From Actinomycetales bacterium (GTDB taxonomy: Bacteria > Actinomycetota > Actinomycetes > Nanopelagicales > Nanopelagicaceae): a stretch of 64,000 bases of DNA. Position 1 is the stretch's first letter. Each line of letters starts with the position of its first letter. The notes beneath the pieces were generated by a model. It was not told where the DNA came from and searched no databases. It worked only from the letters and a program-made list of their open reading frames with translations. The position numbers and the translations under genes are program-made. The stretch lies in assembly GCA_018969585.1 (NCBI GenBank), contig JAGWYB010000001.1, forward strand, positions 4,821-68,820, written 5' to 3'. This document shows, in pieces, positions 25,836 to 31,043 of this stretch.

Positions 25836-25865
25836 TGAAAAAAGCCCGCCGAAGCGGGCTTTTTA
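25836..25865 (-). terminator. Rho-independent terminator after the DUF3040-like gene
   Basis: A perfect 7-bp GC-rich stem AGCCCGC/GCGGGCT closes a 4-nt loop. On the minus strand it is followed by a T-run, and it begins about 14 nt after the stop codon at 25879. Confidence 0.8.
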
Positions 25866-25878
25866 AAGGCTTTTTTGA

Positions 25879-26220
25879 TTAATCTGGATTTCTGCGATCC
25901 CAACGCTCCTCAAAACGGGCGCTCCACTTTGATCCAGTTTTTGGGGTCCGTGTTCGAGCCATTAATCCCCCAAGGTTTGAGAGAGCCAAAACCGCTCCGC
26001 CTAGAGCTATAGCGAAGCCAAAGACTCCAAGGAGAGGCGTTTTCCCAACCAAGCCGGCTAGTAGCACGAATAGACCGGCGACTATCAAGAGAAAGCCGAT
26101 AACCGCCCGAGAGCGGTTAGGTGTCTTTCCGTTAAAGGTGGAGATCAGCCGCGGGTCGTCTGCGGCAAGGGCCTCTTCCATCTCGGCCAGTAGGCGCTTT
26201 TCATGATCAGATAAAGGCAT
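25879..26220 (-). CDS. DUF3040-like small membrane protein
   Basis: 113 aa with an N-terminal LSDHEKRLLAEMEEALAADDP motif followed by two TM helices. A gene of this type commonly sits upstream of mraZ in Actinobacteria. Confidence 0.7.
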   Translation of the reverse strand: MPLSDHEKRLLAEMEEALAADDPRLISTFNGKTPNRSRAVIGFLLIVAGLFVLLAGLVGKTPLLGVFGFAIALGGAVLALSNLGGLMARTRTPKTGSKWSARFEERWDRRNPD

Positions 26221-26283: not shown

Positions 26284-27471
26284 TCACTGAGAGCTATCTT
26301 CTATCAGCCGAGCGGGTTGAACCGAGCCATGGCCGAAGCGAGCGATGGCTCGATCGATTGCAACCTGCGCTTCCCGCCAACCTCGATCACGGCTTCCCAG
26401 CTCTAGTTGTTCGACCGCTCCATCTTCATCGACGAGCTGATCTAGGCCAATTCCGAGGAGCCTAATCCGCGAGCCAGTTAAATTTAAAGATTTATACAAC
26501 TCTCTTGAGATTTCAAAAACTTCACGCATCCCATTTATTGGCAAAGGTAAGGTTCGTGACTTAGTGAGATTTGTGAAGTCAGAAAATCGCACCTTGAGCG
26601 TAATTGTTCGCGCTCTAAGCAAACGTTTACGCAGACGCTGAGTAACTCGTTCTGCAAGGCGCAACAATTCACGTTCTATATCCTCACTATCTTCTAAATC
26701 GTAAGAAAAAGTTTCGGCTGCGCTGATGCTTTTTTCTGGAGCATCAACGACAACTTCACGAAAATCCCTACCCCAAGCCAATTCGTATAGGGCTTCACCT
26801 GAAATGTCACCGAGCGCCCTTTTTAAAGTATTTAATGGGGTATTTGCAATATCTGCAACAGTTCTTAAGCCGAGTTGCTTTAACGTTTCTCCAGTTTTTG
26901 GCCCTACTCCCCACAGCTCTGTTACCGGAAGTGGATGGAGAAAAGTTAATACTCGGTCTCGTTGAATTTCGAGCATTCCATCCGGTTTACACCTACCTGA
27001 GGCTAGCTTTGCTATGAATTTAGATGATGCAATTCCAACGGAGCAGGTTATTTTTTCTTCATCTCTAACTCGCTCTCTGATTGAATTTGCGATATCGCGC
27101 CCATTTCCGAAAATACGGAGTGCACCACTCACATCAAGGAAGGCTTCATCTAGCGAAAGTGGCTCCACGTAAGGTGTAAATTGAAAAAATATCTCCATCA
27201 CCCTTCGAGAAACTTCCGAGTAGCGATCATGGTCTGGTGGGATAAAGACTGCAGTTGGCGCCATCCGTTGTGCCTGAATTACGGGCATAGCGGCACGGAT
27301 ACCAAACTTCCTGGCTGCGTAATTTGCTGAAAGAACCACCCCGCGAGCTCCCGCCCCAACAACCAGTGGTTTGCCTTTATGTTCTGGGTAGTCGAGCTCA
27401 GAGACCGATGCGAAGAAAGCATCCATGTCGACATGGAGAATCGTTGACTCTTCTCGCCTCATATCACTCAC
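26284..27471 (-). CDS. dinB: DNA polymerase IV (Y-family, catalytic residues intact)
   Basis: 395 aa with HVDMDAFFASV, SLDEAFLDVSG and SVGIASSKFIAKLASG motifs. A QLELGS segment sits at the position of a beta-clamp-binding motif. The start overlaps the dnaE2 stop by 8 nt. Confidence 0.88.
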   Translation of the reverse strand: MSDMRREESTILHVDMDAFFASVSELDYPEHKGKPLVVGAGARGVVLSANYAARKFGIRAAMPVIQAQRMAPTAVFIPPDHDRYSEVSRRVMEIFFQFTPYVEPLSLDEAFLDVSGALRIFGNGRDIANSIRERVRDEEKITCSVGIASSKFIAKLASGRCKPDGMLEIQRDRVLTFLHPLPVTELWGVGPKTGETLKQLGLRTVADIANTPLNTLKRALGDISGEALYELAWGRDFREVVVDAPEKSISAAETFSYDLEDSEDIERELLRLAERVTQRLRKRLLRARTITLKVRFSDFTNLTKSRTLPLPINGMREVFEISRELYKSLNLTGSRIRLLGIGLDQLVDEDGAVEQLELGSRDRGWREAQVAIDRAIARFGHGSVQPARLIEDSSQ

Positions 27472-30400
27472 AAGCAGCGAGATTACGCCACTGGGTATAA
27501 GCGTTAAATAGGTCCCAAGCTCCGGTAGCTTGTAGGGAAAGACCCCGAGGTCCAGTACGTCTAATGGCTCCCCTGACTAATAAGAGCGAAGAACTTCTCA
27601 AAACTTTTGCATAACTATTTTGAGCATCTTCAAAAAAAGTAGAGTCATTACATCCATAGCCATCATCTAAGGTTAGAAACATAACTCGCTTCCCCGAGCG
27701 AATCGGAGGAGTTTGTAGAGCTACTTTTACTCCAGCTACTAGTACCTCGCTCTTTGATCTATGTTGGCGGAGCTGGTCAGAGCGGACTGCGCCTATAGCA
27801 TTTAAAAACTCTGAGTAGAACTCAATCATGTGGTGCGAGACATCCATATTTAAATAAGCAATCTCATTTTCTACTAGCTCATTTCTTCTTAAATCAGGTA
27901 GCCCAGTTTTCTCTAAAGGTGGGGTTAGATTGAATGTAAGTTGTGAGCTGGCGATACTTTTTTTCTGGCTAGAACGAGACCAGCGGTATAGATCATTTAA
28001 GTGAAGTAGCAGATCGCGACGGTTTAACTTTCCTCCGTAAAGCGAGTCAAAAGCGCCTACCATCAGTAAAGCTTCTGTTGTTGGCTTGCTAGAACCCGAG
28101 CGATCGACAAAATCCGGAAGGTCTATAAATGGCCTAGCGCTAATTATGGAGTCAATCTCGGAATCTGTTATTCCAGAGAGATCTTTAAGAGATATTCGAA
28201 TAGCCCCGGCATCAACTCGATAAGTTCGATCGGATAAATTCACATCTAAAGGAGCTATTGCTACTCCGCATCTTCTAGCTTCATCTAGCATCAATCGTTT
28301 CGGGTACATACCCGGTTCATGAGTGAGAATCCCAGCAAAGAAGGCTGCTGGGTAGTGCTTCTTCAACCAAGCTGATTGATAGGTAGGAAGAGCAAAAGCG
28401 GCTGCATGCGCTTTGCAGAAACCAAATGATGCGAAGGCGCGTAATACTTCCCAAACTTCAGTTACAACTTTTAATGGATAACCCAATTTGGTGGCTGCCG
28501 GAAAGAACCAATCACAGACTGCTTGTTGACCATCTCGATCACCGAGAGCGCGTCGCTTCTCATCAGCTTGCGCCAATGAGATTCCGGTTAGTCGGGCGAT
28601 TATCTCTATTACTTGTTCATGGAATACGACTACACCCTCGGTTTCACGCAGAATTGGCTCTAAATCTTGGTGGATTATCGAACGTACTTTCCAGCCTTGG
28701 CGAGCATTTAAAAAGGGAGTAATCATGTCGCTCTTCATCGGACCTGGGCGAAAGAGCGAAATATCGATTATCAAATCGGTGAAAGTTTCTGGAGCAAATT
28801 TTCCTACGAGTTCACGCTGTCCCGGGCTTTCAATTTGGAATAAGCCTAAGGTATTAGTTGAGCGTATTAATTCAAAAGTTGGATTATCGTCAAGTGGTAT
28901 CGAATCAATATCTATCTTTTTTAAATCAACTCTTTCTATTTCTTTGACGGCGTAAGCAAGGCTTGACTGCATTCGAACTCCGAGAATATCTAGCTTTAAT
29001 AGCCCAATTGCTTCTACATCATCTTTATCCCAGGGAATCATTGGGTAGCCACTGGCATTTTTTTCAACCGGTGCGCGATCGTAAAGAGTTATATCAGAGA
29101 GAACTACGGCACAAGGATGCATGGCAAGATTTCTAGGAAGACCATCTAGTCGCTGCGCAAGTCCAACGGCCATCTTCCAGATAGGAGAGGTTAGATTTAG
29201 ATTACGTAATTCGGGTAAATCGTTAAGTGATTTACTAATATTTCTAGCTCTTATATGAGGTAGCGATTTTGCAACTAAATCAACCTCCATCGGCGGAAGT
29301 GATAGCGCGGCTCCGACATCGCGAATTGCATGTCTTGCTCTGTAGGTATCAAACATTGCGACTGTTGCGGTTCGATCTTTATAGCTTTCAAATACTTGAT
29401 CGTAAATCTCAAGTCGACGAGCAGATTCGACATCGATATCGATATCAGGAAGGGCATTCCTTAACGGTGAGCAGAAGCGCTCCATCAAAAGTCCAAGAGA
29501 AAGTGGCTCGACCCCAGATATACCCAGCAAATGACAGATAAGCGAACCTGCACCACTGCCGCGAGCTGCAACTCTTATCCCACTTGTTCTAGCTTTATCG
29601 GTTATAGCGGCGACTGTTAAGAAATATGACTCATAACCCAGTTGATTGACTATTGCCAACTCTTTTTCAAGTCTTGTTAAAACTGCGGAGCGATTAGAGA
29701 TATCTGGATATTTATTAGATATTTCAGCATGAGCGCGCTCTTTAAGAATTCGCGCTAACTCGATCTGATCTCTAGCGCCAGATAGAAAAGGTTCTGGTAG
29801 ATGGATGGAGCCAATTCCAATGTCATCTGCTGGGGATAGTTGGGCTGATTGGGCCCACTCCTGGGTAGTTTTAATTAGTTTTCTACCATCCCTATCTCCA
29901 GCAGCTCTTGCGATTATTTCGGCTATTTGGAACATTTCAGCGCTATCTTTTAAAAAGGCTTCGGCATTTTTACGCTCTACTACATTTTTATGGAGTGGTA
30001 ATAAATTTCGAGAAGCGTCAAGAATATCTGCGATAGGGGCATCGCTACGCTCCTTCATTCTTACGGCATTAGTCAATAAAGCGGGAATCTCATTAGACCT
30101 AGCAAATCCGAGCATGCGAGCTGCGTGAGCGGAAGATCTATACCCTAATTTATCTAAGTGAGACACACACTCAATGGCTTGTGATTTGAAAATATCTCTA
30201 GTTCTATTGAATAACGCTAATGCTCTATCTTCTCTATGGGATGCGATTGATCTGCTTATATCTGAGTTAGGTCCTAATAACGCTAATATATTTTTGGTAT
30301 CTTCATGATTCTCTTCAAAAATTTGATAGTTAGCGGTTCCCGATTTCTTAACCGCAGTCATAAGCCTTACTAGAGATTGCCAGTTACCTGGTGTTGCGAG

Positions 30401-30634
30401 CAAAGTAATTCGAGATTGGTTCTCGTACTCGACATCAACTCCGATGATGGGTGATATCGAATTTTCTTTACAACTAACTACAAATTTAATTGCGCCAGCT
30501 AAAGTGTCGCGATCAGTCAAAGCTATCGAGTTCATATTTAACTCCGCAGCTTTTTCGACCATCGCTTCCGGGAGGGTCGTCCCATATTTAAAGGAGTAGC
30601 CACTTGCTAGGTGTAGATGGGTGAAGCTCATCAT
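27464..30634 (-). CDS. dnaE2: Error-prone DNA polymerase III alpha-type subunit (DnaE2)
   Basis: 1056 aa. It has a PHP N-terminus (FTHLHLASGYSF), is shorter than the DnaE1 at the left window edge, and sits in a LexA-box operon with a Y-family polymerase. Confidence 0.85.
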   Translation of the reverse strand: MMSFTHLHLASGYSFKYGTTLPEAMVEKAAELNMNSIALTDRDTLAGAIKFVVSCKENSISPIIGVDVEYENQSRITLLATPGNWQSLVRLMTAVKKSGTANYQIFEENHEDTKNILALLGPNSDISRSIASHREDRALALFNRTRDIFKSQAIECVSHLDKLGYRSSAHAARMLGFARSNEIPALLTNAVRMKERSDAPIADILDASRNLLPLHKNVVERKNAEAFLKDSAEMFQIAEIIARAAGDRDGRKLIKTTQEWAQSAQLSPADDIGIGSIHLPEPFLSGARDQIELARILKERAHAEISNKYPDISNRSAVLTRLEKELAIVNQLGYESYFLTVAAITDKARTSGIRVAARGSGAGSLICHLLGISGVEPLSLGLLMERFCSPLRNALPDIDIDVESARRLEIYDQVFESYKDRTATVAMFDTYRARHAIRDVGAALSLPPMEVDLVAKSLPHIRARNISKSLNDLPELRNLNLTSPIWKMAVGLAQRLDGLPRNLAMHPCAVVLSDITLYDRAPVEKNASGYPMIPWDKDDVEAIGLLKLDILGVRMQSSLAYAVKEIERVDLKKIDIDSIPLDDNPTFELIRSTNTLGLFQIESPGQRELVGKFAPETFTDLIIDISLFRPGPMKSDMITPFLNARQGWKVRSIIHQDLEPILRETEGVVVFHEQVIEIIARLTGISLAQADEKRRALGDRDGQQAVCDWFFPAATKLGYPLKVVTEVWEVLRAFASFGFCKAHAAAFALPTYQSAWLKKHYPAAFFAGILTHEPGMYPKRLMLDEARRCGVAIAPLDVNLSDRTYRVDAGAIRISLKDLSGITDSEIDSIISARPFIDLPDFVDRSGSSKPTTEALLMVGAFDSLYGGKLNRRDLLLHLNDLYRWSRSSQKKSIASSQLTFNLTPPLEKTGLPDLRRNELVENEIAYLNMDVSHHMIEFYSEFLNAIGAVRSDQLRQHRSKSEVLVAGVKVALQTPPIRSGKRVMFLTLDDGYGCNDSTFFEDAQNSYAKVLRSSSLLLVRGAIRRTGPRGLSLQATGAWDLFNAYTQWRNLAACE

Positions 30635-30921
30635 TAAGCGGGTCTAGATGTGGGGCGGATTCGCCAGATTGGATTTGCTGGATCGGTTATCTCTTCGCGT
30701 TCAATTTCAAAGGTTGAAATAGCGCCCAATGGAGCTGCTTCTACCCGCCAGAGAATTCTTGAGCCATCATCTGGGCGATAGAAGCCATCGCTAGCTCTAT
30801 TCCACCAAGCTCCTGACTCGCGCCAAGAAGAGAGAACTGCATGGATGCGAAATCGTCTACCGCGGAAGGTGAACTCGATTGGTTCGCCCCCGGATAGATA
30901 TATATTTGGTCTTTCGAACAT
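30634..30921 (-). CDS. Small Trp/Arg-rich hypothetical protein, first gene of the dnaE2 operon
   Basis: 95 aa (…SSWRESGAWWNRA…ILWRVEA…IWRIRP…). Its stop shares an ATGA overlap with the dnaE2 start, and its start codon lies inside the LexA box. I recognise no motif in it. Confidence 0.6.
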   Translation of the reverse strand: MFERPNIYLSGGEPIEFTFRGRRFRIHAVLSSWRESGAWWNRASDGFYRPDDGSRILWRVEAAPLGAISTFEIEREEITDPANPIWRIRPTSRPA

Positions 30922-30929
30922 TTGTTCGA
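30914..30929. promoter_or_regulatory. LexA SOS box (TCGAAC-N4-GTTCGA)
   Basis: The sequence is an exact palindrome, TCGAACATTTGTTCGA, matching the actinobacterial/Gram-positive SOS-box consensus. It covers the ATG (30921..30919) of the 95-aa ORF. Confidence 0.85.
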
Positions 30930-31043
30930 ACCTTAGCGAGAGCTACCGACTAACTGCAAACCTCGCGTGTCCTGCCTCGAAATTAGTTGAATTTTCAATT
31001 ATCTAACATATACTTCCCCGGTCCGCTTAATCGAAAGGGAAAA

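Follow-up and report, generated by a model that had tools for sequence, protein, structure and literature searches.

A predicted SOS operon of imuB-C, dnaE2 and polY in an acI-type actinobacterium probably belongs to the DnaE2B-PolY-ImuB-C-RecA type

The 64-kb stretch of DNA analyzed here (hereafter the window; G+C ~44–47%) carries a three-gene operon, imuB-C, dnaE2 and polY, under a predicted SOS operator. We conclude that this operon probably belongs to a mutasome variant that was published as a computational prediction, the DnaE2B-PolY-ImuB-C-RecA variant of ImuA-ImuB-DnaE2. It has the defining features of that type, save those that are weakly supported or beyond the reach of sequence, while the defining features of the canonical mutasome are missing. 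The original prediction for this DNA had described a cassette of a 95-amino-acid (aa) orphan, DnaE2 and an intact DinB. That the module is wired unlike ImuA'-ImuB-DnaE2, with an intact Y-family polymerase occupying the place of ImuB, stands. The design itself is not novel, since variants are found in PMC6511836 and the exact combination in PMC12926913. The system type has already been catalogued computationally (2019, 2026), and the operon of the window is a well-conserved case of it, not a new kind of system. Close relatives of the small open reading frame (ORF) are labelled 'Candidatus Nanopelagicaceae' or 'Actinobacteria' in their source names, which identifies the host as an acI-type freshwater actinobacterium of the low-GC Candidatus Nanopelagicaceae.

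The operon consists of three minus-strand genes whose ORFs lie where they had been placed and whose tight coupling was correctly recognized. The first gene, imuB-C (30634–30921, 95 aa, Pfam DUF6504), is assigned by Pfam, BLASTP and hhalign; the second, dnaE2 of the DnaE2B group (27464–30634, 1056 aa), by Pfam and N-terminal bit scores; and the third, polY (26284–27471), by Pfam, NCBIfam and a reference PolY. The polY product has 395 aa when read from the GTG at 27471 and 392 aa when read from the ATG at 27462. The stop codon of imuB-C and the start codon of dnaE2 do overlap, through one base in the sequence TAATG and not through a shared ATGA as had been claimed. The claimed 8-nt overlap of dnaE2 and polY exists only with the GTG start at 27471, while the alternative ATG at 27462 lies 1 nt past the dnaE2 stop; the coupling is tight under either polY start. 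Plus-strand ORFs inside dnaE2 and polY were taken to be shadows of the two genes on the opposite strand.

The 95-aa protein, previously regarded as an orphan, belongs to a recognizable family. It matches Pfam DUF6504 with an E value of 1.1e-10 (42.1 bits against a cut-off of 24.2) and has 80 close relatives of 55–84% identity; a profile built from the relatives matches 234 clusters (50% identity), nearly all of 80–130 aa. A fused ImuB was not found among the 150 listed of these 234 profile matches, and the sole long match, P0195 (690 aa), was dismissed for its weak and unrelated Pfam matches. A set of 48 diverse DUF6504 members shares the pattern P..F.WRGR...V...L..W.E.G.WW ... WRVEA ... W, in which W33, W39 and W40 are invariant. 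Additionally, standalone 'ImuB-C' reference sequences were taken from the supplement of PMC12926913, and all four that were tested (Tessaracoccus lapidicaptus VEP41449, Alicyclobacillus ACV58046, Kyrpidia ADG05749 and QBR94233) score above the DUF6504 threshold. BLASTP aligns the 95-aa protein with T. lapidicaptus VEP41449 at 28% identity (E 7e-7), and hhalign places the family profile on residues 244–333 of the 334-aa Thermogutta ImuB1 (probability 92%, E 5e-7), the region that constitutes the ImuB C-terminal domain. These comparisons show the protein to be homologous to the ImuB C-terminal domain, here standing alone, and not the new accessory factor that had been proposed. ImuB is therefore split, not missing, and the ImuB part that is modelled to hold DnaE2 would be retained as a separate gene. 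Standalone ImuB-C proteins are reported to have been first noted in PMC3765255 (2013).

The AlphaFold2 model of the 95-aa protein (predicted local distance difference test score, pLDDT, 76) is mostly β, with six strands and one short helix. A PDB sequence search with the protein gave no match, and Foldseek with the model returned nothing significant (best E 0.87, template modelling (TM) score <0.5). The absence of such matches agrees with the published remark that ImuB-C is a β-barrel without close known structural relatives (PMC12926913). A deeper Nanopelagicales branch (L066–L084, e.g. L074:6918-7243) encodes an ImuB-C with an N-terminal extension of ~25–35 residues (MFENxxPAQE...RAQVSQV), located between the operator-encoded MFE described below and the conserved domain.

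PolY contains the complete set of Pfam domains IMS, IMS_HHH and IMS_C, and passes the NCBIfam Pol IV models PRK03858 (369.7 bits vs 367) and PRK02406 (345.4 vs 256). Residues D8, D10, F13, R49, D103, E104 and K157 of E. coli DinB correspond to D15, D17, F20, R54, D108, E109 and K162 of PolY, and the catalytic residues are retained in 69–70 of the 71 PolY relatives. The closest of the compared proteins is T. lapidicaptus PolY VEP41451 (46% identity, 337 bits), with residues 11 to 393 aligned including the C-terminal tail; the msDinB3-like protein scores 249 bits, the Caulobacter PolY-core 241 and Mycobacterium tuberculosis (Mtb) ImuB 28.5. Judged from its residues and its nearest relatives, PolY is a catalytically intact enzyme of the Pol IV / PolY-core type. 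A putative β-clamp-binding motif, QLELGS, occupies residues 355–360 (26392–26409, minus strand); it resembles the C-terminal QLVLGL of E. coli Pol IV, and the QLxL pattern recurs in 64 of the 71 relatives. Both the catalytic signature and QLELGS had been pointed out before, and both hold up; a further element behind QLELGS had been overlooked.

This element is a RecA-NT-like tail, GWREAQVAIDRAIARFGHGSVQPARLI, at PolY residues 364–390 (26302–26382, minus strand), recognized by alignment with the tail of the reference PolY. QLELGS and the tail are both conserved in the relatives and in T. lapidicaptus PolY, whose tail has been modelled bound to RecA (PMC12926913). When the PolY tail was compared with full-length RecA by hhalign, only RecA residues 11–27 were aligned (E 0.002, probability 14%). 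A motif hidden Markov model (HMM) of the tail was also run against ~7,900 decoy ORFs and nine RecA sequences: RecA was the top non-self match and five RecAs ranked in the top 20, each individually insignificant, and the best stretch in each matching RecA fell within N-terminal residues 8–37. A RecA-NT motif is likely present in the PolY tail, given the homology of the tail to that of the reference; our own tests are positionally consistent but weak.

The 1056-aa protein shows the Pfam domains PHP, DNA_pol3_alpha, finger, HHH_6 and OB. When its N-terminal 420 aa are compared with the actinobacterial DnaE2B proteins of T. lapidicaptus and Streptomyces alboniger, the scores are 224 and 213 bits, whereas DnaE2A/DnaE2X references give 114–145 bits and a spirochaete DnaE2B 105. 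On this comparison of N-terminal 420-aa segments with partial-length references, the protein groups with actinobacterial DnaE2B and not with A or X. The polymerase active site is intact, its catalytic motifs being PDIDID (residues 396–401; 29432–29449, minus strand) and KLDILG with the third catalytic Asp (residues 547–552; 28979–28996, minus strand), and both are found in all 73 full-length DnaE2 relatives. QLTFNL at residues 898–903 (27926–27943, minus strand) is a candidate internal β-clamp-binding motif; 57 of the 73 have Q[LF]x[FLM]x[FL] at this position, often as QL[TS][FLM]G[FL]. With the motif in PolY, this suggests that both polymerases of the operon might bind the β clamp. In NCBIfam the protein passes only the generic superfamily model TIGR00594 and stays below the specific cut-offs, so annotation pipelines likely name it 'DNA polymerase III subunit alpha'. 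Likewise, imuB-C is likely annotated as 'hypothetical protein', a label already seen in the source names of the relatives. In the PHP domain (DnaE2 residues 6–20; 30577–30619), the His-x-His is kept at residues 6–8, and S-F-L-D-G, present as SFLDG in Mtb DnaE2A, is replaced by SFKYG, where the actinobacterial DnaE2B references have SFQYG and SERYG. By eye, the PHP metal site of DnaE2 may be incomplete.

The LexA (SOS) operator TCGAAC-AAAT-GTTCGA lies at 30914–30929, with no strand assigned, and follows TCGAAC-N4-GTTCGA, the mycobacterial SOS-box consensus. It is the single exact match in 64 kb and none of 100 shuffles gave any; when two mismatches are allowed, the count in the window is not above chance. 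The perfect box had thus been called correctly, and its placement ahead of the first gene had not: it contains the start ATG of imuB-C (30919–30921). For comparison, one genome per GTDB species was scanned, and relatives of the small protein proved to be encoded in 490 stretches; the 80 best of the 490, four further loci and the window make up a set of 85 loci. As the query alignment was narrow, all of the best 80 are Nanopelagicales-like, and the set is uninformative on distant taxa. The box is perfect in 78 of the 85 loci and has at most two mismatches in 83, and an in-frame ATG sits at box positions 9–11 in 79. A perfect, conserved box at the operon start points to SOS control.

A −10-like hexamer of the form TANNNT, TAAGGT in the window (30930–30935, minus strand), abuts the box as a putative promoter element. 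Each of the 78 loci whose box is perfect has such a hexamer next to it (TAAGGT, TATTTT, TAGAGT, TAGTAT, TAGGGT and others), and the final base of the hexamer lies 8 nt ahead of the A of the ATG. Leaderless transcripts are common in Actinobacteria, and the spacing from hexamer to ATG, together with the position of the ATG within the box, suggests that the operon mRNA is leaderless and that LexA covers its start. As a by-product, the operator half-site GTTCGA encodes the conserved N-terminus of ImuB-C and so fixes it as Met-Phe-Glu. We did not find a description of this operator-in-start-codon design in the literature consulted. In a more distant relative (L004:8921-9797), two identical LexA boxes (TCGAACATATGTTCGA) are present, one at imuB-C and the other 28 nt ahead of dnaE2; between these two genes there is an additional ORF of 105 aa, for which Pfam gave no match.

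The absence of ImuA and ImuB from the window, as originally predicted, is supported by tblastn searches. Mtb ImuA', Mtb ImuB, Pseudomonas aeruginosa ImuA and a RecA gave no match in the window, and in the 84 related loci the same queries returned only weak Y-family similarity to polY itself. Additionally, a published feature table covers six complete Nanopelagicaceae genomes (four Planktophila, two Nanopelagicus), each of which has exactly DnaE1, DnaE2B, PolA1 and one PolY-core; the table speaks to polymerases, not to ImuA. As PolY-core is the sole Y-family member in these six genomes, there is no room for ImuB, and genomes with DnaE2B are described as lacking imuA and imuB (PMC12926913).

Published work places these parts in a known type. 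In PMC6511836 (Nucleic Acids Research 2019), variants of ImuA-ImuB-DnaE2 were described that lack ImuA and combine an active or inactive PolY with standalone ImuB-C and/or DnaE2; all of them carry a RecA-NT-like motif, and RecA was proposed as the replacement of ImuA. In PMC12926913 (Nucleic Acids Research 2026), the combination of DnaE2B, active PolY, ImuB-C and RecA was reported only in Actinobacteria, exemplified by T. lapidicaptus, and AlphaFold-Multimer tetramers of this type were modelled with high confidence (interface predicted TM score, ipTM, ~0.84–0.87). The window operon resembles the T. lapidicaptus system in gene order (ImuB-C, DnaE2B and PolY are the consecutive VEP41449, VEP41450 and VEP41451), in a PolY that is 46% identical including the C-terminal tail, in an ImuB-C of the same Pfam family, in a DnaE N-terminus closest to the T. 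lapidicaptus-type group, and in an actinobacterial host lineage apparently without ImuB. It differs in that its host is low-GC and streamlined and appears to have no Y-family polymerase or DnaE2 outside the operon, and in that its ImuB-C is only 28% identical to the reference; moreover, the published complex models are of other species and not of the lineage of the window.

Other known systems are more remote. The canonical ImuA(')-ImuB-DnaE2 mutasome of Mtb, Caulobacter and Pseudomonas shares LexA control (predicted for the window), a DnaE2-type polymerase, the ImuB-C domain, and a Y-family scaffold that bears a clamp motif and, likely in the window as well, a RecA-NT-like motif. In contrast to the dead ImuB with fused ImuB-C of that system, the Y-family protein of the window keeps its catalytic residues, has ImuB-C as a separate ORF and scores only 28.5 bits against Mtb ImuB. 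Moreover, its gene lies downstream of dnaE2, the DnaE2 is of group B rather than A, and tblastn found no RecA-like ImuA/ImuA' in the window or the related loci. The cassette of Deinococcus deserti likewise combines a Y-family protein, standalone ImuB-C and DnaE2 under SOS control without ImuA. Among the split-ImuB cassettes in the literature consulted, this one alone is backed by genetics: it is RecA/LexA-induced, and UV mutagenesis requires ImuY, DnaE2 and RecA. However, its ImuY is predicted inactive, while the PolY of the window appears active, its gene order differs, and lexA lies inside the Deinococcus operon but is not adjacent in the window. The Geobacter lexA-imuB-C-polY operon and the PolY-ImuB-C-RecA type (PMC6511836) share an active PolY coupled to standalone ImuB-C; the Geobacter operon is damage-inducible as one transcription unit (PMC6511836), but it is delta-proteobacterial and lacks DnaE2. 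Finally, UmuD-containing systems have a LexA-controlled Y-family polymerase, a small β-rich accessory subunit and a RecA protomer held through a RecA-NT-like tail, whereas the accessory protein of the window is unrelated to UmuD, nothing points to its self-cleavage, and a second, C-family polymerase is present.

Taken as a member of the DnaE2B-PolY-ImuB-C-RecA type, the operon would work as follows. Without DNA damage, LexA would block both transcription and the translation start of the leaderless mRNA. After damage, activated RecA would trigger LexA self-cleavage, and the three coupled genes would be made in fixed proportion. ImuB-C would then bind DnaE2 at its PHP domain, which is the contact of the fused ImuB-C in the models of ImuA-ImuB-DnaE2 (PMC12926913). 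PolY would tether the assembly to the β clamp, its RecA-NT-like tail would hold a RecA protomer standing in for ImuA, and the assembled complex would carry out error-prone lesion bypass. As both polymerases look active, they could plausibly share the work: PolY would insert opposite the lesion and DnaE2 would extend.

The triplet is retained across relatives. A lack of conservation, which the original prediction had named as a reason to give it up, was not encountered: among the 70 loci with sufficient downstream sequence, 64 have the intact triplet in the same order. In about one in ten of the related species-level loci the cassette is disrupted. Specifically, dnaE2 is broken (frameshifted or partly deleted) in L001, L013, L042 and L079, and polY is frameshifted in L052. 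In L071 (7246–7563), all that is left of dnaE2 between imuB-C and polY is a remnant of 105 aa, so that this locus has drifted through dnaE2 loss to a Geobacter-like two-gene state; in L007 (10455–13630), dnaE2 is followed not by polY but by S-Me-THD-like and hydantoinase genes. These cases could reflect decay of the genes as genomes are streamlined; alternatively, the metagenome-assembled genomes may have been wrongly assembled or binned.

Several observations weigh against the assignment of the operon to the four-part type. Pfam DUF6504 does not score on the fused Thermogutta ImuB1, to which the profile comparison is the sole link. The similarity of the PolY tail to RecA is statistically weak (the hhalign values given above, and E values of at least 1 with the motif HMM), and a Pfam scan of the tail found no DUF4113. 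Of the host genome, the window alone was covered in looking for imuA, imuB, recA and lexA. The NCBIfam scores of the 1056-aa protein, both below the cut-offs, are higher for the DnaE1 model PRK05673 (632 bits) than for the error-prone model (596). The broken and two-gene cassettes mean either that the three parts are not strictly interdependent or that the assemblies are erroneous. Last, complex formation in this system type is a prediction from published AlphaFold models of other species, which are computational only.

Part of this evidence would fit the main alternative, in which the genes share nothing but a promoter and encode two separate damage-tolerance units, a DnaE2-ImuB-C dimer and an ordinary, perhaps RecA-binding, Pol IV, with no four-part complex. 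DnaE2B-ImuB-C dimers (Arthrobacter alpinus) and PolY-RecA dimers are indeed listed as separate system types (PMC12926913), L071 has ImuB-C and PolY with dnaE2 almost all gone, L007 has ImuB-C and DnaE2 with no adjacent polY, and PolY looks fully competent alone by its Pol IV models and catalytic residues. However, the order and close coupling of the three genes are kept in 64 of 70 loci, PolY is nearest to the PolY of the four-part reference system and not to a generic DinB, and the published multimer models of the four-part complex have the high ipTM values cited above. The L007 locus, moreover, continues into metabolic genes of no relation to the cassette and may result from a rearrangement or from faulty binning. 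We therefore regard two independent units as rather unlikely, although this is the strongest of the alternatives.

That the 1056-aa protein is a DnaE1-like replicative paralogue and not a translesion DnaE2 would agree with the higher of the two sub-cut-off NCBIfam scores. Against this stand the LexA operator and the coupling to ImuB-C and PolY, an N-terminus clearly nearest to DnaE2B, and the complete genomes of the family, which have a separate DnaE1 besides one DnaE2B. The gene is also disrupted in several relatives, which an essential replicase would not tolerate. A DnaE1 identity is thus highly improbable and was rejected on the DnaE2B-like N-terminus and the separate DnaE1 of the family genomes. 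Slighter still is the chance that the 95-aa protein has no relation to Imu proteins and acts as a novel accessory factor, in a module of previously unseen design: NCBIfam has no model for it, the PDB sequence and fold searches were empty of significant matches and DUF6504 was not found by name in a literature search, but the protein shares DUF6504 with published ImuB-C and is homologous to the ImuB C-terminus, findings that refute this reading, and PMC6511836 and PMC12926913 already describe modules of this type.

The assignment to the DnaE2B-PolY-ImuB-C-RecA type poses the question of why an active Y-family polymerase is paired with an active DnaE2, and what role ImuB-C has in the pairing. 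The acI/Nanopelagicaceae are among the most abundant freshwater bacterioplankton and live under sunlight. With four DNA polymerases per genome according to the published tables, the operon would be the whole damage-induced mutagenesis apparatus of the lineage. A stronger proposal is that PolY and DnaE2 form an obligatory inserter/extender pair, joined through ImuB-C, the clamp and RecA, and that this one operon, leaderless and occluded by LexA, is the entire translesion capacity of these streamlined 1.2–1.4 Mb genomes; we put this forward tentatively, as a possibility more doubtful than the assignment itself. If true, the pair would be a bacterial counterpart of eukaryotic two-polymerase bypass, and PolY would not be a passive, ImuB-like scaffold. 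To a type so far known from computation only, the window contributes a well-conserved case whose host lineage has few polymerases, a minimal set, and a clean regulatory design in which the start codon of a probably leaderless mRNA lies within the operator.

The operon sits upstream of a DUF3040-mraZ-mraW-ftsI cell-division cluster, an arrangement typical of Actinobacteria. The neighbours of the triplet are DoxX, TauE and DUF3040-mraZ, and lexA is not among them; Rfam and tRNA scans of the window gave no matches. The DUF3040 gene (25879–26220, minus strand, Pfam DUF3040) keeps its synteny with the triplet and is possibly the last gene of the transcription unit. A strong terminator was not found in the interval between polY and DUF3040, and an intrinsic-terminator-like hairpin with an 11-bp stem and a T run (25839–25864, minus strand) stands after the DUF3040 gene instead of after polY. 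Given this position of the hairpin, the DUF3040 gene, which lies just upstream of the mraZ promoter region, may be co-transcribed with the SOS operon.

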